Origin: Parcubacteria group bacterium Gr01-1014_31 | GTDB lineage: Bacteria; Patescibacteriota; Patescibacteriia; Buchananbacterales; GWA2-38-13 | Direction of reading: 5' to 3' | DNA: 64,000 nucleotides | Assembly: GCA_007376135.1 (NCBI GenBank) | Contig: VMFR01000001.1 | Location: 142,554 to 206,553, forward strand | In this document: in pieces, positions 16,991 through 53,037 of the stretch | How positions within the stretch are numbered: position 1 is the first letter of the stretch | Layout: each line of letters begins with the position of its first letter | The notes under the pieces: generated by a model | What the model saw: the letters and a program-made list of their open reading frames with translations, nothing else | The model's database searches: none | What the model was told of the DNA's origin: nothing | Made by a program: the position numbers and the translations under genes

Positions 16991-19600
16991 CTACTTTTTA
17001 ACGCCGATGATGACTTTCCCCTTTTGTTCGTCGATCGTGACGGTGTTGCCGGCCTTGACCTTGCCTGAGACGATCTCAAGCGCCAGCGGATCCAGTACCG
17101 CGCTCTGAAGCACGCGCTTCAGCGGGCGCGCCCCATACGTCGGGTCGTAGCCGCGCTTCGCCACCCAGGCCAGCGCCTTCTCGCTGAACTTCAGCCGGAT
17201 GCTCTGTTTGTCCAGACGCCGGATCGCGAGCTGTACCTGCAGATCAACGATCTTTCGGATATCCTGCGGCGAAAGCGAATGGAACGTGATGATGGCGTCC
17301 AGCCGGTTAAGAAACTCCGGTTTGAACGACTTGCGCAGCACTTCCTGAAGGCGTTCTTCCATGGCATGCTGATCGACCGCCTCGCTTCTGCGCTGAGTCG
17401 TGAACCCCAGGCTGTAATCGTGGATGATGTCCGAACCAAGGTTAGACGTCATGACGATGACCGTATTTTTAAAGTTCACCGTTCTTCCTTTGGCATCGGT
17501 GACGCGTCCCTCGTCAAGGATCTGCAGCAGCAGGTTGAAAACGTCGGGGTGCGCCTTTTCGACCTCATCGAGCAGCATCACGGCGTATGGGCGTCGGCGG
17601 ATGATCTCGGTCAATTGCCCGCCCTCTTCGTAGCCGACGTAGCCGGGCGGCGAACCGATGATCTTGGAAACGGAGTGGCGCTCCATGTACTCGGACATAT
17701 CCAATCGGACCAACGCGTGCTCATCATCGAACATGAACTCCGCCAGGGCCTTGGCCAGCTCGGTCTTCCCTACTCCGGTCGGACCAAGGAACAGAAAAGT
17801 CCCGATGGGGCGATGTTCCTCGCCGATGCCGGCCCGCGAACGCCGTACGGCATTGGCGACTGCGGTAATGGCCTGCAGCTGCCCGACCACCCTGCGGCCA
17901 AGCCCTTCCTCCATCCGCGCCAGCTTTGAGGATTCGCTCTCAAGCATCCGCGCCACCGGCACGCCGGTCCAGCGGGACACCACGCCGGCAATATCCTCCT
18001 CGCTCACGGTTTCCTTGATGATCTGACGGTCGCGCTGTAAACGATTGAGCTTGCTGGTCAGTTCCGTCATCTTCTTTTCCAGCGCCGGCATGGTCGCGTA
18101 TTTGATCTCCGCCACCCGCTGCAGTTCACCGCTGCGCTCAAAGCGCTCGGCTTGAAGCTTTAGCTTCTCGGTCTCCTCGCGGGCCTGCTTGATCTGATTG
18201 ATAAGGTCTTTTTCTCCGCGCCAGTGGATCTCTATCTCGTTGGCCACCTCCTCCGCGTCGGCAAGCTTTCGGTTCACCTCCTCCAGAGGTGAACCGGGGA
18301 TGCCCTCTTTCTTCAACGCCTCTTTTTCGACTTTCAGCTGCAGGATCTTGCGCTTCAGGACATCCAGCTCGTCAGGCATGGAATCGATCTCCATCCGCAA
18401 CCCGGAGGCGGCCTCGTCGATGAGATCGATGGCTTTGTCGGGCAAAAAACGATCGGTAATGTAGCGCTGCGAAAGATTGGCCGCCGCCACCAACGCCCCG
18501 TCCGTGATCTTAATGCCATGGTGCAGCTCGTACCGCTCCTTGATGCCGCGTAAAATGGCGATGGTGTCCTCCAACGACGGCTCGCCGATAAGTATCGGCT
18601 GAAAACGGCGCTCCAAGGCCGCATCCTTCTCCACATGCTTTTGATATTCCTTCAAGGTGGTAGCGCCGATCATCCGTAGCGTACCCCGCGCCAGTGCGGG
18701 CTTCAAAAGGTTGGCGGCATCGATGGCGCCCTCGGCGCCGCCTGCCCCCACAATGACGTGCAACTCGTCGACGAACAAAATGAAGCGGTCGGGCTCGTTC
18801 TCCAGTTCCTTCAGCACGGCCTTCAGGCGGTCCTCAAATTCACCGCGAAACTTCGAGCCGGCCAGCAACGCGCCCATGTCCAAGACCATCAGTTCTTTGT
18901 CCTTGAGGCTGTCGGGGACGTCGCCGTTGACGATCCGCTGCGCCAACCCTTCGACCACGGCCGTTTTCCCGGTACCGGGCTCGCCGATCAAGACGGGATT
19001 GTTCTTTTTCTTGCGCGAGAGAACCTGCATGACGCGCCGGATCTCGCGGTCACGGCCGACCACCGGATCCAGCTTGCCGCTGCGCGCCTGTTCGACCAGA
19101 TCGGCCGCGTACTTGCGCAAGGCCTGATATTTGCTCTCCGGCTCCTGGTCGACGACGCGCTGCGTGCCCCGCACCGATTTCAACACCGTCAGCACCTTAT
19201 CGTAGGTGATCCCAAGCTCTTCCAGGATGAATTTCGCTTCCGAGTTGACCTCGGTCAGCGCCAGCAGCAGATGTTCGGTGCTGACGTATTCGTCATGAAG
19301 TTGGTTGGCGATGCGTTCGCTGCGTGCCAAAACCACGTTAAACTCCGTCGTCAAGTGCGGCGCCACGACCAGTCCGGACACGACGGGAACTTTCTTTTCG
19401 ACCGCCGCGATGCGGGCGCGCAGCCGCGCGAGGTCGATTTCAAGTTTTTTGAATACCGAGAGTACCACGCTCTCCGGCTGCTCGATCAATGCCGAAAGCA
19501 GATGCGGCACCGTGATCTGCTGGTGCCCCAATTCCGCGGCATGTTGCACGGTCCGCTGCAACGCGTCTTGCGCTTTATAGGTGAATTTAGATGGGTCCAT
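16991..19600 (-). CDS. clpB: chaperone ClpB (Hsp100 disaggregase)
   Basis: 869 aa. Clp_N repeats, two canonical AAA+ modules ([13 protein letters not shown] and [18 protein letters not shown]) and a long coiled-coil M-domain. Confidence 0.95.
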
Positions 19601-32637: not shown

Positions 32638-33561
32638 TCAAACTTTCAGGTAACGGCGCACGGCGAACACCGATCCCACCATATTTAGCGCCGACATTCC
32701 CAGCAGTTGCGAACCGAAGATGGCCACAAAGTTCTCGCGGAAATAGCCAGCCAGATCGAGCGGTACGCCGGTAAAGAAATCCTGAAGATACGGCTGCACC
32801 GCATTCAGCAACGGGAATGTGACCGCCACAGCGAGTCCGGTCGCGCACAGCGCGTACAGCACGCCCTCCAGCACGAACGGCGCGGTGATGAACGCGTTGG
32901 ACGCGCCGACCAGCTTCATAATGCCGATCTCGTCGCGGTGCGTATAGATCGCGACGCGGATGGTGTTGAACACGATCAGCGTGGCGATCAGGACGAACAG
33001 CGCCGATATCGCGATCCCCGCCTGGTTAATGCGGTCGGCGATCAGTCGGATCTCGTTGATCGTACGCTGGTGGTCCTTATAGTTCTCGTCGCTGACCAGA
33101 TCGCGGTACGGCGAATGGTTGAGCACCTGGATGATCTCCGGGTAGTCCGAGGGGTGTTGTGCGGTCACCACCAGCGTCGCTCCCAGCGGGTTGTCGCCCA
33201 GCTCCTCCAGAGTCTCCAGGATGGCAGCGTCACGGGCGTGCCGCTGGCGGAATTCTTTCATCGCATCGTCGGCGGTCACGAGCGTGATGGCGGTCACCTG
33301 TGAAAGCTTGCCCAAGTAGTCCTGCACCTCTTTGACCTTCGGCGTGTCCACCACCGGGTCAAAGTAAATGCTGACGTCGATCTTTTGCTCGAGGGAGGTA
33401 ACGGCGGAATCGGCGACGACATTGAGCGCCAGCAGCGCATTGACCGTCAACGACGCCAGCGCGATGATGCTGACGGTCACCAGCGACAGCCAGAAATTGC
33501 GCCAGAACCCTTGCCAGGCGAATTTAATGACGCGGTAGATGGTCACGAGCATATGCTTCAA
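32638..33561 (-). CDS. ftsX: cell division permease FtsX
   Basis: Four TM helices, a periplasmic domain and the FtsX C-terminal motif. Its start overlaps the ftsE stop. Confidence 0.85.
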   Translation of the reverse strand: MKHMLVTIYRVIKFAWQGFWRNFWLSLVTVSIIALASLTVNALLALNVVADSAVTSLEQKIDVSIYFDPVVDTPKVKEVQDYLGKLSQVTAITLVTADDAMKEFRQRHARDAAILETLEELGDNPLGATLVVTAQHPSDYPEIIQVLNHSPYRDLVSDENYKDHQRTINEIRLIADRINQAGIAISALFVLIATLIVFNTIRVAIYTHRDEIGIMKLVGASNAFITAPFVLEGVLYALCATGLAVAVTFPLLNAVQPYLQDFFTGVPLDLAGYFRENFVAIFGSQLLGMSALNMVGSVFAVRRYLKV

Positions 33562-34244
33562 CTCAACCGATAGCGCCCAACCGCCTCATCGGAGGTCAGT
33601 GTGCCCTGATCAAGTACCAGCACACGGCGCCGGATCTGATTAACCCTCCCCTCGTCATGGCTGACAAACAGCACGGTCGTACCGATCTGGTTGATCTTCA
33701 GCAATAACTCGATGATCTCTTGCGAGGTGGCCGTATCCAGGTTGCCGGTCGGCTCATCCGCCACCAGGATCTTGGGACCGTGGGCGAGCGCCCGTGCGAT
33801 CGCGACGCGCTGCTGCTCGCCGCCGGAAAGGTGGCGCGGGAAACGGTCGTGCTTATCGGCCAACCCGACGATCTTGAGCACCTCGGGGACGATCTTGCGG
33901 ATACGCGAGGGGCGCGCTCCGATCACCTGCATCGCGAATGCGACATTCTCAAAAACGGTCTTCTTTTGCAATAATTTGTAATCCTGGAAAACGACACCGA
34001 TCTGCCGCCGAAGGTAAGGCACTTCACGAGACCGGATGTGCGTAATGTCCCAACCGCCGACGACCACCTGCCCTTCGCTCGCCCGCTCTTCGGCGGTCAG
34101 GATCTTGACCAGCGTGGTTTTTCCGGTGCCGCTCTTGCCAACGATCGAGATGAATTCACCCGCCAAAACCTCGAAAGAAACGTTGGCCAAAGCGACCGTG
34201 CGCTCAGGGAAATAGATTTTGGATACGTTGCGGAAGATGATCAT
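33558..34244 (-). CDS. ftsE: cell division ATP-binding protein FtsE
   Basis: ABC ATPase: [37 protein letters not shown]. Confidence 0.9.
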
Positions 34245-44787: not shown

Positions 44788-44820
44788 AAAAAAACCGCCG
44801 TCCGAGGTGCGGACGGCGGC
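44788..44820 (-). terminator. rho-independent terminator after rplU
   Basis: CCGCCGTCCG-AGGTG-CGGACGGCGG hairpin followed by T7 on the minus strand. Confidence 0.6.
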
Positions 44821-44839
44821 TGAAGTTCGGATTTTTGGA

Positions 44840-45194: not shown

Positions 45195-45674
45195 TCAAGG
45201 GATATTACCCTCTTGGACGAGGTCGCCGACGGCGAGGCCCGCGCGCTCCGCGAACCCGGCGGGCACCTCCAGGACGGCATCAACGTCCACGGCGGGACGG
45301 TACAGCGGCAACGGGCCGCTGCCGGACGGCGGCGGCACGTCGGCCGTGATCTGGACGATCTTGCCCCCGCGGATCCAAAGAAAATCCAGCGGCATGAGCA
45401 TATCTTTCATCCAAAATTGCGGACGTTGCGGCGGCACGAACGGAAAAAGCATGCCGCTCCCGTCCGCCAGGCGGGCGCGACCAGACAAACCCCGCGCCTT
45501 GCGTTCGATGGTATCGGCGATTTCCGCCTGTACCACGGCCCGCCCGATATTCAACGTGACCATAGATAATGGAGGGTCGGCCTGAGGACGCGCTCGCAGT
45601 GTGAGCCAGGCGAACGGCAGCAAAGCCACGAGCGCCGCTCCGGCGATTCCCATAGTGCGTCCCTGCATACGCAT
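45195..45674 (-). CDS. DUF192 domain protein (secreted)
   Basis: Signal peptide followed by the DUF192 signature (GMLFPFVPPQRPQFWMKDMLMPLDFLWIRGGKIV...AVLEVPAGFAERAGLAVGDLV). Confidence 0.6.
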   Translation of the reverse strand: MRMQGRTMGIAGAALVALLPFAWLTLRARPQADPPLSMVTLNIGRAVVQAEIADTIERKARGLSGRARLADGSGMLFPFVPPQRPQFWMKDMLMPLDFLWIRGGKIVQITADVPPPSGSGPLPLYRPAVDVDAVLEVPAGFAERAGLAVGDLVQEGNIP

Positions 45675-46705
45675 TAGGCGCTTCGGGGTTTCCTGCTCCA
45701 GCGCAACAGCCACGTTACGAGTACCACGAGCGCTGCCAGCGCGGCAAGCTTTCCTTTCGGCGAGGCCACCAGCGCCGCCATGCCAAATCCCGCCGAAAGG
45801 GAAGAAAGCAGGGCAACCACCTGGCGCGGCGACCACCCCCGTTCGATCAAGCGGAAATGCAAATGGCGCCGGTCGCCGCGGGCGATCTTGGCGCCGTGCC
45901 GGATACGTTCCACGATCACCCAGGCGGCATCGGCCACCGGCACGCCCATGACCAGCAACGCGGTCGTGATCTTGCTGCCAGAAACTATCGCCAGCAGCCC
46001 GAGCGTGAAGCCGGTAAAGACGCTCCCCCCTTCACCCAGGAACAATCGCGCGGGACTCAAGTTATGGGGCAAAAAGCCGATACAGCTGCCCGCGAACGCC
46101 AACGCCAATACGCCGGTGGCGGCTGACGGCGCGTCCCAGGCTAGACTCACTCCAAAAATAATCAACCCCCCGACCGCGCTGATGCTGGAAACCAGCCCGT
46201 CGAGTCCGTCCAGAAGCTTGGTCGTGTACATCATCCCGACCAGCCAGACGAACGTGAGCCAACCGGAGATCCACCACGGCACAGAGAAAACTCCGCCCAA
46301 GGGGTTGGTGACCAACTCGATGCGTACGCCGCCAGCGAGCACGACCGAGGCGGCAACCAGCGGCCCGAGCAATTGCGCCGCCGGCGGTAGGCGAAAACGG
46401 TCGTCAATGAATCCGACCGCCATCAGCACGGCGCTGCCGAGTCCGGCGGCGATCAACACGCCGGCGGTACTGTGCTCGTCCGGCAGCCAGCCCGCATTCC
46501 ATAAGAATATGGCGGCGCCCAGTACGCTGCCCCACAGCGCCAATCCGCCCAGCAAGGGAACCGGCCGGGCGTGCTGTTTCCTTCCGGCATCGGGCTGGTC
46601 CACCGCGCCGACCCGCCGCGCCAATGCGCTGACAAAAAATGAAAGCGCCCACGAGGTGAGCGCCGCGCCACCGAGTACCGCCAGATAGAACCACCAACGG
46701 GACAT
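45674..46705 (-). CDS. glycosyltransferase family 4 polyprenyl-phosphate N-acetylhexosamine-1-phosphate transferase (MraY/WecA-like)
   Basis: Ten-TM protein with VDQPDAGRKQHARPVPLLGG, typical of WecA/MraY cytoplasmic loop 1. Confidence 0.65.
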   Translation of the reverse strand: MSRWWFYLAVLGGAALTSWALSFFVSALARRVGAVDQPDAGRKQHARPVPLLGGLALWGSVLGAAIFLWNAGWLPDEHSTAGVLIAAGLGSAVLMAVGFIDDRFRLPPAAQLLGPLVAASVVLAGGVRIELVTNPLGGVFSVPWWISGWLTFVWLVGMMYTTKLLDGLDGLVSSISAVGGLIIFGVSLAWDAPSAATGVLALAFAGSCIGFLPHNLSPARLFLGEGGSVFTGFTLGLLAIVSGSKITTALLVMGVPVADAAWVIVERIRHGAKIARGDRRHLHFRLIERGWSPRQVVALLSSLSAGFGMAALVASPKGKLAALAALVVLVTWLLRWSRKPRSA

Positions 46706-46715
46706 AGCATCCGCG

Positions 46716-49499
46716 CTAGAGTACAGCCGGTTTTTTGACCGTCACTGAACCCCCGACGTCAAGGACGATCGTATCGCGCCGCTGTAGTTCGCCGCGGAGG
46801 ATCTTGGTAGCGATCACGTCGTCTACCCGCTCCTGGATGACGCGCCGCAGCGGTCGGGCGCCGTACTGCGGGTCGAATCCCGCGGCAGCCAGCTCATCGA
46901 TCGCCGCCTCGGTTGGCTGCAGCGCGATACCCTTGGCTTCCAAATGTTCCCCGACCTCTGCCAGCATCAAACGGGTGATCTGCCGCACTTCCTTGCGGCC
47001 CAGCGGTTTGAATACGACCACGCTGTCGAAGCGATTCAAAAATTCAGGTCGAAAGTGCTGCTGCAGCTCGCCGCCCATCAGCTGCTCCTTGATCTCGGGC
47101 ACCGCTACCCCCGCACCGACCAAACGCTGGATCGTCGGCGTGCAGGCGTTCGACGTCGCAATTAAAATGACGTTGGTAAAATCGATCGTGCGGCCGACCG
47201 CGTCGGTCAAGCGCCCGTCATCCATAACTTGCAAAAAGAGGTTCAATATCTCGGGGTGGGCCTTTTCGATCTCATCCAACAGCACGAGGGCGAACGGCCG
47301 CCGCCGTACCGCCTCGGTCAGGTATCCCCCGCTCCCAGCGCCGGAAAACCCGGGCGGGGCGCCGAGCAAGCGGTTCACCGAGGACTGCTCCTGGTACTCG
47401 GACATATCCAGGCGGATCATCTCACTCCCCCGGCCGAAGTACACCGCCGCCACGGTCTTGGCCAGCTCGGTCTTCCCTACCCCGGTCGGACCGAGAAACA
47501 GCAGGTTGACGATCGGGCGCCGGGTATCCCGCAATTCGGCGCGTGCGCGGCGGATGGCTGCGGACACGACGGTCACCGCCTCCTCCTGGTCCACCACGCG
47601 CTGATGGATATCGTCTTCCAGACGAAGCAGTTTCTCGCTTTCCTGCTGGGTTACGTCGGTCAGCGGGATATTGGTTTTCTCCGAAACCGTGCGGGCGACA
47701 TCCTGCCCGCCGACGTTCGCCTGCCTCCCCTTTTCGTTCAAGACGCGTACCGCCGTCTCATCCAAAATTTCTATCGCTTTTTCCGGTAGGAACCGGTCGT
47801 GCAGGTAGCGGCTACTCAAGGCAACGGCCTGTGCCAGCGCATCATAAGTAAAGAATACCTGGTAGCGCGCCTCCAACGGCCCGGCCTTGGCCTCCAGGAT
47901 CTGGATGGCGGCGTTCGCTTCCGGTTCTTCGATGTCCACCTTCTCCATCACCTGCCCGAGCGCGTGATTCTCCAGATATCGGGCGTAGTCCGCCGGCAAG
48001 GCAGTGGCAATGACCTGCAGGCCAGTCTGCGTCATAGCTTGGGCCAGCGCCCCGGCCAGGTCGAGCGCCGCCCCCCCGCCGGAGGTAATGCCAACCATCT
48101 TGGTGATGTCGTTGAAGAAAACGATGATGTTGCCGGAACGCTGCGCTTCCGACAAACAGTGCAGCAAGCGCTCCTGGGCCTCGCTCGGGCTGACCCCGCT
48201 GATCAGGCGCGCGACGCTGATGGAAACCAGCCGTTTGTCCTGCAGCATCGGCGGCACCTCTTCGGCGACCATGCGGCGCGCGATGCCATTGATAATGGCT
48301 CGCTTGCCGATGCCGGGATTACCCACCAGCAGCACATTCTGGCGCGCACCGGCGGCCAGGACGCGGAACATCTCGGCCACCTCGCGCTCGCGATCCTGGC
48401 ACGGTTCCAGGAATCCGACTTTCGCCAGTTGGGTCAGGTCCTGGCTGAAGTGGTCCAAGAACGGCGTTGCTACCGCGGTCATCGTCCGGTTGACCCCGGT
48501 GTGTTTGGAGCGATACGCGGCCTTGCGGCTGAACTGTTGCCCATGCTCCCGCTGTTCGCGCCGTACGCGCAGCCATACCGTAACGTTGGCGATCTTGTCG
48601 CCGTCGACGTTCAGATCGTAGAGCAGTTCGCGAACCAACTCGGAGGTCTTCACGCAGGCCTCCAGCAGTTCCGGCAAGTCGACCTTCTTCTGGCGTCCGA
48701 TGAACGCCTGGGCGTAGGCGGCCAGCAGCACCTCCCGCAATTCCGCCGACATGGATAAACGATTCCCCGTCGGCACCGCGTACCGGGGAAGGAGTTTAAT
48801 GATGCGCCGCCGCAGCTGGTCGAAGGAAACCCCCAGGCGGACGAACATCTCCGCAGTGGCCGGGAAGGTTAGGATGGAGACCAGTAAGTGTAGCGGCGCG
48901 ACGACCTGATGATTTCCGCGGCGGGCCAGCAGCCACGCCTTTTCGACCGCCGCGACCGCCGGTGCGCTGTAAAACTGGGCCAAGTCGAACTGCCGTACGC
49001 GGGGCACCTTCACGGCCGCTTCCCAGCGGTCCGGCAACGGCGATGGCTCGGCCTCGCGCGCGGCGCGACGCGGCAGATGCCGGATCTTGGACAGCTCCAT
49101 CGCAAAGTGAAAGACCAGGTAGCTGTCCGACAACACCGACATCCAGAACGTCAGCATCCCGACGCTCTCGCGGCGGTAAAACTGCCACAGCGGGTAACCC
49201 GCCTGGTTCAGGCGGGAAAGCTCCCACAGCAGGCTCCCCGCCCCCAGCGCCGCGAAACACAACAGCAGCGTCAAGACCGCATGCTCCGCGATCGTGAATA
49301 CCTGGCGCTGCCGCAAGTGCCAATCATCGATAGCGCGGCCCCAATACAACAGCCAGTCTCCCTGGCGCCCGACCACGGCGCGTCCGCGGCAAGTAGAACA
49401 CCACGACTCACCGGTCACCCCCGCGCCCTCGCAGGTCGGGCAGCGGTACGCGGTCACCAGCGGCGGGTCTTTCGGCCTAGGTGCCATACGGGGCAACAA
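46716..49499 (-). CDS. membrane-anchored Clp/Hsp100-family AAA+ protein with N-terminal C4 zinc ribbon and degenerate D1 ATPase module
   Basis: N-terminus CPTCEGAG..CSTCRG, then two predicted TM helices. Clp_N repeat region follows. D1 reads GNPGIGKRAI with Walker B FFNDITKM in place of GxPGxGKT/DE. D2 is canonical ([24 protein letters not shown]). No long ClpB-type M-domain. Confidence 0.65.
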   Translation of the reverse strand: MLPRMAPRPKDPPLVTAYRCPTCEGAGVTGESWCSTCRGRAVVGRQGDWLLYWGRAIDDWHLRQRQVFTIAEHAVLTLLLCFAALGAGSLLWELSRLNQAGYPLWQFYRRESVGMLTFWMSVLSDSYLVFHFAMELSKIRHLPRRAAREAEPSPLPDRWEAAVKVPRVRQFDLAQFYSAPAVAAVEKAWLLARRGNHQVVAPLHLLVSILTFPATAEMFVRLGVSFDQLRRRIIKLLPRYAVPTGNRLSMSAELREVLLAAYAQAFIGRQKKVDLPELLEACVKTSELVRELLYDLNVDGDKIANVTVWLRVRREQREHGQQFSRKAAYRSKHTGVNRTMTAVATPFLDHFSQDLTQLAKVGFLEPCQDREREVAEMFRVLAAGARQNVLLVGNPGIGKRAIINGIARRMVAEEVPPMLQDKRLVSISVARLISGVSPSEAQERLLHCLSEAQRSGNIIVFFNDITKMVGITSGGGAALDLAGALAQAMTQTGLQVIATALPADYARYLENHALGQVMEKVDIEEPEANAAIQILEAKAGPLEARYQVFFTYDALAQAVALSSRYLHDRFLPEKAIEILDETAVRVLNEKGRQANVGGQDVARTVSEKTNIPLTDVTQQESEKLLRLEDDIHQRVVDQEEAVTVVSAAIRRARAELRDTRRPIVNLLFLGPTGVGKTELAKTVAAVYFGRGSEMIRLDMSEYQEQSSVNRLLGAPPGFSGAGSGGYLTEAVRRRPFALVLLDEIEKAHPEILNLFLQVMDDGRLTDAVGRTIDFTNVILIATSNACTPTIQRLVGAGVAVPEIKEQLMGGELQQHFRPEFLNRFDSVVVFKPLGRKEVRQITRLMLAEVGEHLEAKGIALQPTEAAIDELAAAGFDPQYGARPLRRVIQERVDDVIATKILRGELQRRDTIVLDVGGSVTVKKPAVL

Positions 49500-49938
49500 G
49501 CCAGGGAATCGTCACGAAATAGGCGAAATTACGCCAGATGAAATAGCCGGCGGCGATCGGGGCGGCGATCCACACGGCGGCAACTGCCAACACGATCAGC
49601 AGCCACAACACCAAAAGCAGCGTGCGTCCCGCACCAACGAACAACCGCATGACGAAACTGATGATCCTCCCCTCCCAGTCGTACTGGCCGTACATCGGTA
49701 CAAAGAGGTTGCGCCACCAGAGGCCGACCCCCAAGCGGTGTTCCTCCTCCAGGATGACCGAAGCGAGGCTCGTCACCAACTGCCGCAAGCCGAAGCTGTA
49801 CCACCACAGCGGCCAAAAGAGCACTCGCCCGACCAGGTCCACGGCGAATATTTTTAGCGATGAAAGCGCGACGCTGTGGCTCATACCTTTCTGATTATAC
49901 CACAAAACTATCCCTCCCGGATGGCCCCTATGCGTCAC
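49477..49938 (-). CDS. hypothetical small membrane protein (153 aa)
   Basis: About four TM helices. Its 3' end overlaps the Clp-like gene start by 23 nt and it starts 12 nt after the tgt stop. Confidence 0.4.
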   Translation of the reverse strand: MTHRGHPGGIVLWYNQKGMSHSVALSSLKIFAVDLVGRVLFWPLWWYSFGLRQLVTSLASVILEEEHRLGVGLWWRNLFVPMYGQYDWEGRIISFVMRLFVGAGRTLLLVLWLLIVLAVAAVWIAAPIAAGYFIWRNFAYFVTIPWLVAPYGT

Positions 49939-51063: not shown

Positions 51064-53037
51064 TCATTGCCCGATCTCCACCACCAGGCCGCGCCCACCG
51101 CCGAACGGGTCATCCTCCAGATTGGAGGTAATGCTGCGCTTCAGGCCCACCACCGTGGAGTCCGTGACGGCGTCGTTCGCCGTCAGGCTGGTCTCGCTCG
51201 TCAGCAGTAAAAGTTTGCCTACCTGTTCTTGGGTGGGGGTCACGGCCATATCGAACCAGGCATTGACATCTTCGGCGGTCTGCTTGGCGGTGATGATGGG
51301 TATGGTCCAGGTGATACGCCGCTCCTTGGCATCGTAAGTCAGTTGGCCGGTCGTCGCCAAGAATTTCCCTTCCCAGACCACGTCCGCCGCCAATACTGTA
51401 CTGACCGTCACTTCCTTGACATCATGCAGGCTATTGCCCAGCGACCAATAGATGCGAAAACTTGTTCTCTCCCCCACCACCGGCGGTAGCGGACCGGACC
51501 CGACCGCAATGTTGTCGTCGTTAAAGTACCGACCCTCGGCTTTTAGCTCCAGCGCCGTATTCACGGAATTCGTGATGGTGCCGCTGCTCACTTCCTGTCC
51601 GGCGGAAAGACCGTTGATCGCGCCGATGACCACGCGCGCCGTGCTCACCGTCGCCAGGTCCCGCGTTTCGTCATCGATCGTTTCCGGCGCGACCAGCTGA
51701 AGACTGAAATCCAGCGTTCCTTCGGCCAGAGGTCCGAGCGCGGCCAATTCAGGTATCACATCCTTTGCCCAACGGATGGTATTATCGCTGACGGTACCGA
51801 GGTTTTTGTCGACGATGGTTTTGAGATCGACCACCGATGAATCAATGGAAGCCTCGATCAGCACATCCTCCAGGGTTTCCTGGCCCAAATTCTTATAGAC
51901 GATGCGGTAATTGAGGGTATCGCCGAGGTTGACCGGCTGGTCCGCGGACTGCCCATTGATAATGAGGTTGACCTGCAGCGACGGGCGCACCAACACGGTG
52001 GTCAGGCGCTGCTCCTGCTGCAGCGAAAACCCGCCGGTCTCATCGATCAGGCCGATGTGGGCGGTTAATACTTGTTCAGTGAAAGCCGCGTCCCCGGTCG
52101 CACCGCCGAACCCGCCCGTGATCTTGATAACGCCCTGGGCTTTGGCGCCCAGGGTCGTAAAATACCAACGGCTGTTCGGGTCCTTGCCGGTCAGACCGCT
52201 GAAATTAGCCACACTCGCCGGTGGCGATTTTGGCGCCGGCTCAGAGGTCCTGAAGATGAAGCCCGGCGGGTAATCCACCTGGATCAGCACGCCTTCGTAT
52301 GGTTTTTCCGCCGTATTTTCATAACTGATCTCGTAGCTGGACTCGCGGTCGGGCACCGCGCGTTCCGGCCCGTTGACCGACAGGTTCAGGATCGACGATG
52401 TGATCTGGAACGTTTTGGAAAAATCATCCTTGAACGTCGAACTGAAATTCTGCGGCCGGTAGTTCACGGTTCCCGCCAGCGTCTTCAGCCCCCCGACCGG
52501 ACCGACCACTTTCGCCGTCAGCTTGATCTCGCCGCCGTCGCCGGGCGCGAGCGCATTGATGCGCCAGCTGTTCGTATACTGATTGACCGGCGCGGGAACT
52601 GCGGACACGAACGTGAACCCTTCGGGGTAGCGTAGCGTCAGTTCGACCGAAGAGACCGCCACGCGGTCGGCGTTCCGATACTTCACGGTGTAGGCGACCT
52701 CTTCGCCGGAAGCGAGCTCCTTGGGCGCGACGATCTCCACGCGCACGCTGGACGGGTTCTCGCCGGCCCCAGCGCCGTCCCGGACGGTGCCGACCAGCCA
52801 TATCGAAGTAGCCGCCGTTGCCGCCACCAGCAGCGCCCAAGCCAGCAAACGCTTGGTCCAATTGATGTGGTAGATCTGCAGCCGCGACACATCGGGCACC
52901 TGCCCGTTGCCGTCGCGATAGATCTTCAGCAACTCCGGGTCGAGCCCGTCGCGCCGATTGAAGTGTTTCAAGCGTCGTCGCTCCATAGCTGTAATGCGGT
53001 TACGGCGCGACCGTGATGGTGGTACCCCAGAATGCAT
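51064..53037 (-). CDS. DUF11 (conserved repeat domain) cell-surface protein with N-terminal TM anchor
   Basis: TM helix LLAWALLVAATAATSIWLV followed by repeated beta-sandwich modules (e.g. YTVKYRNADRVAVSSVELTLRYPEGFTFVSAVP). Confidence 0.5.
   Translation of the reverse strand: MHSGVPPSRSRRNRITAMERRRLKHFNRRDGLDPELLKIYRDGNGQVPDVSRLQIYHINWTKRLLAWALLVAATAATSIWLVGTVRDGAGAGENPSSVRVEIVAPKELASGEEVAYTVKYRNADRVAVSSVELTLRYPEGFTFVSAVPAPVNQYTNSWRINALAPGDGGEIKLTAKVVGPVGGLKTLAGTVNYRPQNFSSTFKDDFSKTFQITSSILNLSVNGPERAVPDRESSYEISYENTAEKPYEGVLIQVDYPPGFIFRTSEPAPKSPPASVANFSGLTGKDPNSRWYFTTLGAKAQGVIKITGGFGGATGDAAFTEQVLTAHIGLIDETGGFSLQQEQRLTTVLVRPSLQVNLIINGQSADQPVNLGDTLNYRIVYKNLGQETLEDVLIEASIDSSVVDLKTIVDKNLGTVSDNTIRWAKDVIPELAALGPLAEGTLDFSLQLVAPETIDDETRDLATVSTARVVIGAINGLSAGQEVSSGTITNSVNTALELKAEGRYFNDDNIAVGSGPLPPVVGERTSFRIYWSLGNSLHDVKEVTVSTVLAADVVWEGKFLATTGQLTYDAKERRITWTIPIITAKQTAEDVNAWFDMAVTPTQEQVGKLLLLTSETSLTANDAVTDSTVVGLKRSITSNLEDDPFGGGRGLVVEIGQ

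Follow-up and report, generated by a model that had tools for sequence, protein, structure and literature searches.

A predicted membrane-anchored Hsp100/Clp paralogue of Patescibacteria with a degenerate first ring and a co-encoded small partner protein

What is a Clp-type ATPase doing with an apparent membrane anchor? To our knowledge the Hsp100/Clp ATPases are soluble, with work at the membrane left to FtsH or carried out through partners, and the question is raised by one locus of Parcubacteria group bacterium Gr01-1014_31. The locus lies in a 64-kb stretch of DNA from a GC-rich genome (contig VMFR01000001.1 of assembly GCA_007376135.1), which was analysed as a whole and is here called the window; it holds the gene for a protein that we name mClp, for membrane-anchored Hsp100/Clp paralogue, and directly upstream of it the gene for a small helical protein. 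With moderate confidence we propose that mClp is a ClpP-independent, membrane-tethered remodelling ATPase, which would be driven solely by the second of its two rings (D2) and would have in the small protein a membrane partner dedicated to it, the two serving the envelope or cell division.

Homologues of mClp were collected from a search of 5.8 billion proteins, which gave 291 matches at E <= 1e-30, and the best 120 of these were aligned with the query (n = 121); they are about 880-945 amino acids (aa) long and span 95-100% of it. Gene context was taken from a sample of 80 loci from species-representative genomes, and the counts below use 72, 73 or 75 of these loci as stated. Residue numbers of mClp are those of the 927-aa frame that opens at TTG 49499. 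The gene and its parts are as follows.

46716..49487, minus strand: mClp, 923 aa from ATG 49487
49338..49454, minus strand: zinc ribbon and beta-hairpin, aa 16-54, CPTCEGAG...CSTCRG then LLYWG (conserved cysteines; modelled strands)
49101..49292, minus strand: predicted membrane hairpin of two transmembrane helices, aa 70-95 (49215-49292) and aa 113-133 (49101-49163), with a short outer loop between them (hydropathy, AlphaFold2)
48519..48983, minus strand: Clp_N double-repeat N-domain, aa 173-327 (AlphaFold2 and Foldseek)
48384..48512, minus strand: linker between N-domain and D1, aa 330-372, [DN]R[AS][MY]TA[VI]ATP.L[DN].FS.DLT (family alignment)
47625..48383, minus strand: D1 pseudo-ATPase module, aa 373-625, with Walker A GNPGIGKR (48297-48323) and FFND in the place of Walker B (48108-48125) (alignment)
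46755..47624, minus strand: D2 active AAA+ module and D2-small, aa 626-915 (invariant motifs), with Walker A GPTGVGKT (47469-47492), the pore loop GAPPGFSGAGSGG (47325-47363) and Walker B LVLLDE (47271-47288)

A reading made from the letters alone, the sequence-only reading, had placed two overlapping open reading frames here (46716-49499 and 49477-49938, both on the minus strand) and had described the longer, a mechanical frame of 927 aa with a TTG start, as having the Clp_N, D1, short linker and D2 arrangement of ClpC and ClpA. Both frames are found at those coordinates, and the arrangement is borne out by Pfam domains and, for the N-domain, by an AlphaFold2 model compared with known structures in Foldseek. 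Pfam recognises AAA_lid_9 at 529-623 (E 8.6e-16), AAA_2 at 661-826 (E 1.4e-55) and ClpB_D2-small at 833-912 (E 1.4e-23). The Pfam match to Clp_N is weak (E 0.0026); in the AlphaFold2 model, which covers residues 1-392, residues 173-327 form an eight-helix domain (predicted local distance difference test score, pLDDT, ~90) that Foldseek matches to the N-domains of HSP101, ClpC1, ClpB, ClpA and Hsp104 with a TM-score of 0.75-0.85 and E ~1e-5. The linker that follows is the best-conserved region outside D2, its mean column conservation of 0.68 being above that of D1 (0.61-0.63), and its motif is restricted to the mClp family and served as the diagnostic pattern for a genome scan.

The first ring has lost nearly everything that would make it work. 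Aligned with ClpC of B. subtilis, GEPGVGKTAI has become GNPGIGKRAI (aa 393-402), ILFIDE has become IVFFND (aa 459-464) and the pore loop AGTKYRGEFE has become SGVSPSEAQE. The P-loop glycines are retained throughout the family and the P-loop lysine mostly so (Lys 109, Arg 12; 120 homologues), with Met (37), Arg (24), Thr (19) or Asn (16) at the next position, where a canonical P-loop has Ser or Thr. The position of the Walker B aspartate is taken by Asn in 34 sequences, Lys in 17, Asp in 13 and Glu in 12, and that of the catalytic glutamate by Asn in 66, Asp in 47 and Glu in only two. Both arginine fingers are gone, the motif ALERRF reading LG[NQ]V[LF][AE]K in the family, and an aromatic residue in the D1 pore loop is found in 0/120 homologues. 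As the same substitutions recur across 120 homologues, sequencing error, which the sequence-only reading had left as a way out, is excluded. That reading had predicted an inactive D1 from the Walker motifs of one protein, GNPGIGKRAI and FFND; the family makes the case stronger than was claimed, with arginine fingers and pore-loop tyrosine also lost. Judged by its motifs, D1 is a pseudo-ATPase across the family, retained under selection for what would be a structural or regulatory role.

The second ring is, by its sequence motifs, fully canonical in its catalytic parts. The Walker A GPTGVGKT, the Walker B residues D742 and E743, the sensor-1 asparagine and R823 in FRPEFLNR are invariant in 121/121 sequences, as are the GARPLRR core of sensor 2 (G880, R882, R886) and the pore-loop-2 region. 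The main pore loop of D2 behaves otherwise. In the window mClp it is GAPPGFSGAGSGG and still aromatic (GFSG); the aromatic residue is kept in 21/120 homologues, and in most of the others the loop is 3-6 residues shorter. When 75 loci are sorted by gene context, the clade that shares the context of the window (class A) has PPG[YF] in 10/18 loci, whereas the clade linked to mraZ-rsmH-ftsL has the aromatic in 0/36 and carries a conserved GQPGQQG[TS]G instead (for example loci L024, L031, L032, L056 and L063). The conservation of QPGQQG[TS] next to an intact ATPase site indicates that the D2 loop has been replaced and has not merely decayed. The clade that keeps the aromatic and the larger clade with the polar loop thus amount to a natural experiment on what a pore loop is for.

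The anchor itself depends on where the protein begins. An ATG equivalent to M5 (position 49487) is the start in 96/121 aligned family members, and is the likely start of mClp, giving 923 aa; the public record P0001 (named "ATPase AAA-2 domain protein", from the same Parcubacteria group bacterium Gr01-1014_31) is 100% identical at 923 aa. Within the N-terminal extension the cysteines C20, C23, C34 and C37 are present in 105/121 sequences together with the glycines of the CxxCxGxG pattern, and the beta strands of the ribbon are modelled at a pLDDT of ~89; Pfam finds there, in a permissive scan, a weak match below cutoff to DnaJ_CXXCXGXG (E 3.8e-4), and permissive scans of the ribbon and of the small protein gave nothing beyond it. 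Both hydrophobic segments, at about 70-95 and 113-133, persist through the family alignment and coincide with AlphaFold2 helices at 59-100 and 113-137. More than 100 orthologues conserve F118, W119, Y130, R131 and W159, and W119 is invariant. With cysteines and hydrophobic segments conserved in this way the first 140 aa are genuine coding sequence, and the worry that they were an annotation artefact falls away with the orthologues that share the extension. Lys and Arg together average 4.2 and 5.2 in the two stretches beside the hairpin and 1.6 in the loop between its helices, a bias that predicts an N-in/C-in topology with the zinc ribbon and the ATPase body in the cytoplasm. Membrane tethering, which had been proposed from the zinc motif and two hydrophobic helices of the single sequence, is therefore a prediction that now holds for the family.

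The second gene of the locus, with its promoter, can be given as follows.

49477..49884, minus strand: small partner protein, 135 aa, from a family-consistent ATG at 49884
49894..49902, minus strand: extended -10 element TGgTATAAT, 9 nucleotides (nt) before the ATG of the small gene

Two longer versions of this gene exist, a mechanical frame of 153 aa from a GTG at 49938 (49477-49938) and a public annotation of 142 aa, "hypothetical". The alignment of the small-protein family begins at a methionine that is residue 19 of the 153-aa frame, and ATG 49884 is on this evidence the most likely start. A TTG start of the small gene is preceded by GGGAGG and, given the GC-rich genome, may come into question. 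The overlap between the genes, put at 23 nt by the sequence-only reading, is 11 nt with mClp starting at ATG 49487.

Of 72 orthologous loci, 38 have the pattern TGnTAnAAT in the 80 nt upstream of the small gene, compared with 1.2% of random windows of that length (binomial p ~1e-53), and 17 of the 38 have it 6-12 nt from the ATG; no match to a -35 element was found upstream of the small gene. A generic scan for promoters and terminators over 43-57 kb of the window gave counts no higher than chance, the promoter signal being significant only across orthologous loci. The conserved box suggests that the pair of genes probably has its own promoter, and a -10 box only 9 nt from the ATG points to an mRNA that is probably leaderless or nearly so, as is predicted also for related Patescibacteria. 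The upstream GTG and TTG codons of the small frame sit within the extended -10 promoter, and the apparent conservation of "LWYN" at some loci comes from reading the TGGTATAAT box as codons; the 153-aa and 142-aa versions, the public start among them, would thus probably translate a promoter.

The small protein has no match in Pfam, NCBIfam or PADLOC. A word-indexed search gave 85 homologues of 105-160 aa, annotated as hypothetical and restricted to Patescibacteria where named, and a profile search of 1.84 billion representatives gave 601 clusters at 50% identity, nearly all of 105-160 aa. Fusions were sought in the same profile search, and essentially all members stand alone. One record of 414 aa (P0279) appears to join the small protein to an mClp-like N-terminus that is without the zinc ribbon, and is most likely a frameshift or a run-on of gene calling. 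AlphaFold2 models the protein as two long helices, 5-51 and 70-125 (pLDDT 92.9), joined by a loop that is the best-conserved segment of the family (W56..N59.F61.P63-M64-[YF]-G66-Q67-Y-D69-W.G72-R73); invariant residues are P25, W27, W28, Y29, G32, P63, M64, G66, Q67, S76, R80 and R87. The C-terminal part of helix 2 is the sole strongly hydrophobic segment, with a mean best hydropathy of 2.79 and some 30 uncharged residues, and the N-terminal part of helix 1 reaches 1.40 and has two conserved acidic residues, 16 and 20. The four transmembrane segments once read into a 153-aa version are thus not seen: the protein has 135 aa, two long helices and one strongly hydrophobic stretch. Its stalk and tip carry 6.9 Lys/Arg on average and probably lie in the cytoplasm, on the same side as the ATPase. 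A Foldseek search of the model against the PDB returned nothing significant; its best E value, 1.9, belongs to PspA/Vipp1 hairpins, a generic resemblance between long hairpins that is not evidence of kinship with ESCRT-III.

The two genes travel together. In 72/73 loci with sufficient upstream DNA the small gene is directly upstream of mClp on the same strand, mostly with gaps of -20 to +10 nt. The mClp family is present in at least 586 species genomes, and all of the 80 loci examined belong to Patescibacteria, the named homologues being from Parcubacteria, Buchananbacteria, Magasanikbacteria, Nomurabacteria or simply the "Patescibacteria group". The pair is thus a candidate core component of a group of bacteria whose envelope and division are poorly understood. 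We found no description of the mClp family or its partner in the literature searched, including papers on protein families of the candidate phyla radiation, on evolution of the dcw cluster (genes for division and the cell wall) and on Patescibacteria transcriptomics, which is not proof that it is unpublished.

Where does mClp stand among the known ATPases? On NCBIfam scores, PDB matches and tests of motif and architecture it is clearly a member of the class-I Hsp100/Clp superfamily and, within it, a divergent lineage-specific paralogue. It has the Clp_N fold and the tandem AAA+ modules of the class (D1 with AAA_lid_9, D2 with AAA_2 and ClpB_D2-small), and departs from the class in having competent motifs and aromatic pore loops in both rings no longer, D1 being dead. 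It lacks the features that define ClpB, ClpA, ClpC, ClpV and FtsH, and its scores lie far under the NCBIfam cutoffs for ClpB (TIGR03346, 596 against 1232 bits), ClpA (TIGR02639, 521 against 993) and ClpV (TIGR03345, 471 against 885); models for ClpG/K also match, again far under the curated cutoff. The best PDB matches by sequence are ClpC of B. subtilis (3j3t, 480 bits) and ClpB of T. thermophilus (1qvr, 470 bits). The organism moreover encodes a standard disaggregase within the window:

16991-19600, minus strand: ClpB, 869 aa, 1219.5 bits against the TIGR03346 cutoff of 1232

This ClpB is near-canonical, with an M-domain and with intact motifs in both rings, and its presence marks mClp as an additional, specialised paralogue, as had been suspected when it was described as something other than the cytosolic Clp of the organism.

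The nearest relative of mClp in architecture is ClpA and the nearest in sequence are ClpC and ClpB, whilst its zinc module recalls ClpE and its placement FtsH. It shares with ClpA the order of N-domain, D1 and D2 without an M-domain, and aligns to the ClpA model in one continuous stretch (protein 184-911 against model 8-730 of 734), but it has no IGL/IGF loop, its D1 is dead and a zinc ribbon and two predicted transmembrane helices have been added. ClpC and ClpB are nearest by sequence, share the Clp_N fold, and the D2 of mClp is 43% identical to that of the window's ClpB. It differs from them in being without the coiled-coil M-domain to which MecA or DnaK binds (9-13 residues stand in its place, against ~130 in the window's ClpB), without the VGF loop of ClpC, and without the Walker B, arginine fingers and KYRG pore loop of D1, and in being, as predicted, integrated in the membrane. 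ClpE carries an N-terminal CxxC...CxxC zinc module before a two-ring Clp ATPase, as mClp carries its zinc ribbon; ClpE is, however, a soluble protein in which the rings are active and both a ClpP loop and an M-domain-like linker are present, the motif of mClp is of the DnaJ type CxxCxGxG, and the ClpE chain in the PDB (29hb) matches mClp through D2 only. With FtsH it would share an AAA+ hexamer that a hairpin of two N-terminal helices holds to the membrane on its cytoplasmic side, and mClp too may plausibly act in the quality control of membrane proteins, which the sequence-only reading had suggested along with a secretion-linked role. FtsH, though, has a single AAA module of the classic clade with an M41 peptidase, whereas mClp has two modules of the Hsp100 clade, and a Pfam scan found no peptidase domain in it. 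No type VI secretion genes, the context of ClpV/TssH, are among the conserved neighbours.

The loop by which Clp ATPases dock on ClpP deserves its own mention. No IGF, VGF or IGL loop was found among 60 family members, and no hydrophobic tripeptide is conserved at its site, in agreement with the sequence-only reading, which had not seen such a loop in the one protein. The corresponding stretch of mClp is a short helix-turn, and the "VGA" of the window mClp, which aligns with the VGF of ClpC, stands at a position that is variable in its relatives.

The genes around the pair bear on its process, and those of the window are these.

45674..46705, minus strand: WecA/MraY-family polyprenyl-phosphate sugar-phosphate transferase (Pfam PF00953, Glycos_transf_4, E 5e-28), 10 nt past the mClp stop
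44793-44821: strong terminator-like hairpin, after the L21 gene
49951-51054, minus strand: tgt, upstream of the small gene
51064-53037, minus strand: DUF11 protein, 657 aa
53000-55813, minus strand: DUF4012 protein, 937 aa

On the minus strand the order is DUF4012, DUF11, tgt, small gene, mClp, Glycos_transf_4, DUF192 and L21. The transferase scores 98.6 bits as WecA and 59.9 bits as MraY in NCBIfam, both under cutoff, and its gene is probably co-transcribed with mClp; DUF11 and DUF4012 are probably surface or envelope proteins. In the 75 loci the core that is kept starts with the small gene and mClp and goes on with Glycos_transf_4 (57 loci, on the same strand, median gap 36 nt), DUF192 (44) and L21 (52). 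The trio of DUF4012, DUF11 and tgt is found upstream in only 15-17/75 loci, and in 36-37/75 the pair instead follows mraZ, rsmH and ftsL at the head of the dcw cluster (MraZ, E 6e-41; RsmH/MraW, E 2e-96; an FtsL/DivIC-like protein with E 3e-8 to FtsL_Actino, below cutoff). The order of the Magasanikbacteria type is (uvrC), mraZ, rsmH, ftsL-like, small gene, mClp, WecA/MraY-family gene, DUF192 and L21 (loci L022, L024, L025, L028, L031-L034, L040-L044 and others), and in such dcw-linked loci the pair fills the place normally taken by ftsI, murE and murF. The pair had been assigned at the outset to a cell-envelope operon; the neighbours named then (DUF4012, DUF11, tgt and the transferase) are indeed there, but the pair has a promoter signal of its own and the upstream part of that context is confined to the 15-17 loci.

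From these observations we infer how mClp may be built and used. It would be an Hsp100/Clp paralogue turned into an integral membrane machine, a double-ring hexamer by homology, fixed to the cytoplasmic side of the membrane through twelve transmembrane helices at its N-termini, with the zinc ribbons and Clp_N domains lying between membrane and rings. The upper ring, D1, would be a scaffold only, possibly one that still binds nucleotide, and since D1 is without catalytic and substrate-gripping elements all of the work would come from the D2 ring. As there is no M-domain a ClpB-type coupling to DnaK is not expected, and as there is no IGF/VGF loop neither is canonical docking to ClpP, which would leave mClp as a stand-alone remodeller. 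The small helical-hairpin protein, co-translated with it, would be its partner, the conserved arginine-rich cytoplasmic tip being the likely contact with the ATPase, either as an adaptor or as a tethered platform for substrates. The pair would most likely use ATP to extract or unfold membrane or envelope proteins, or to control their assembly, in connection with envelope synthesis or division. If this is true, a bacterial Hsp100 that is itself integrated in the membrane, has one live ring and no canonical way of docking ClpP, and comes with an obligate small partner would give a much-studied family a new solution.

Several points weigh against this proposal. The topology is derived entirely from hydropathy, the positive-inside rule and AlphaFold2 helices. 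Conventional threading of polypeptide through the rings is doubtful for most of the family, because no member has an aromatic residue in D1 and about 80% have lost that of D2; for the window mClp, which retains GFSG, threading is plausible on its motif. The word "unfoldase" used in the sequence-only reading may suit this protein and cannot be assumed for the family. The pair appears to have its own promoter and may not be co-transcribed with the upstream genes; in several dcw-linked loci a hairpin with a T-run, seen by eye, stands just before the promoter box, so that adjacency is no proof of co-transcription with ftsL. Finally, small streamlined genomes can keep their synteny even where neighbouring genes have no functional connection.

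In a more specific version of the proposal the pair is a machine of the envelope or of division that is peculiar to Patescibacteria, a membrane-integrated motor derived from Hsp100 and encoded at the head of the dcw cluster. Its pore would have been rebuilt in most lineages so that classical threading of polypeptides is lost, and it would act as an ATP-driven switch or extractor for the divisome or for lipid-linked glycan synthesis, or on a substrate of a non-classical kind. In this full form we think it unlikely.

The lost pore-loop aromatics also admit a reading on the analogy of Torsin with LAP1/LULL1, an Hsp100-clade ATPase that has membrane partners and, like most of the mClp family, no aromatic pore loops. 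On this reading, which seems to us possible yet improbable, D2 would not thread anything; its ATP cycle would be a switch that alters the conformation or oligomeric state of the small partner, of the WecA/MraY-family enzyme or of divisome proteins. The absence of a D1 aromatic in all 120 homologues, a D2 loop that is short and non-aromatic in 99/120 and without an aromatic in any of the 36 dcw-linked loci, and a dedicated membrane partner encoded alongside in 72/73 loci would all fit. It fits less well that the window mClp and its nearest relatives keep PPG[YF] (10/18 class-A loci) and that the D2 arginine finger, sensor 2 and pore-loop-2 are invariant, as in a working hexameric motor. Torsin, furthermore, is eukaryotic, has one ring and no arginine finger of its own but a borrowed one, whereas R823 is invariant in mClp, and it has no comparable transmembrane hairpin.

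Alternatively mClp might be the unfolding half of a membrane protease, handing its substrates to FtsH, Lon or ClpP through a non-canonical interface so that membrane proteins are degraded. Its kinship with Clp/Hsp100 proteins, the nearest solved relatives being ClpC of ClpCP, and a membrane location like that of FtsH lend this some appeal, as does the name "ATP-dependent Clp protease ATP-binding subunit" that its relatives carry in public records; such names are automatic, however, and here the annotation is misleading. With no IGF/VGF/IGL loop in 60 members, no peptidase domain and no protease gene seen among the conserved neighbours in 75 loci, we regard protease coupling as very unlikely.

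To about the same low degree we credit an export motor modelled on HSP101 in the PTEX translocon of Plasmodium, where a ClpB-like motor is mounted on a membrane channel. Cargo would here be unfolded into a channel made of the transmembrane hairpins and the small protein, and DUF11 and DUF4012 surface proteins would be exported. Rings anchored by 12 helices plus those of the partner, the acidic pair in the weakly hydrophobic first helix of the partner and the genes for large surface proteins upstream in class-A loci, the window included, are all compatible with such a channel. The linkage to DUF11 and DUF4012 is nevertheless confined to 15-17/75 loci, the pore-loop aromatics are mostly lost, and the N-domain matches that of HSP101 in structure no better than those of ClpC1 or ClpB; HSP101 is moreover eukaryotic, with two active rings and an M-domain, and is not anchored by a transmembrane hairpin of the mClp kind.

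A role in anti-phage defence was considered and rejected: PADLOC gives only local matches of D2 to the Dodola protein DolB and to PDC-M37B (102-119 bits) and none for the small protein, and in the 80 Patescibacteria loci examined the genes occupy a constant position of the housekeeping kind. That the whole is an artefact or a decaying gene, with a mis-called N-terminal start or with D1 reduced to a pseudogene or riddled with sequencing errors, might be suggested by the TTG that opens the mechanical frame, the overlap of the two frames and the differing public starts of both, but is refuted by the family alignment, in which the N-terminal cysteines and W119 are conserved, the D1 changes recur whilst D1 itself stays conserved, and the frame is intact at 923 aa, of which homologues cover 98-100%.

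Elsewhere in the window, at 32638-34244 on the minus strand, two adjacent open reading frames of 228 aa and 307 aa form a candidate FtsE/FtsX-type ABC pair, going by their N-terminal sequence alone.

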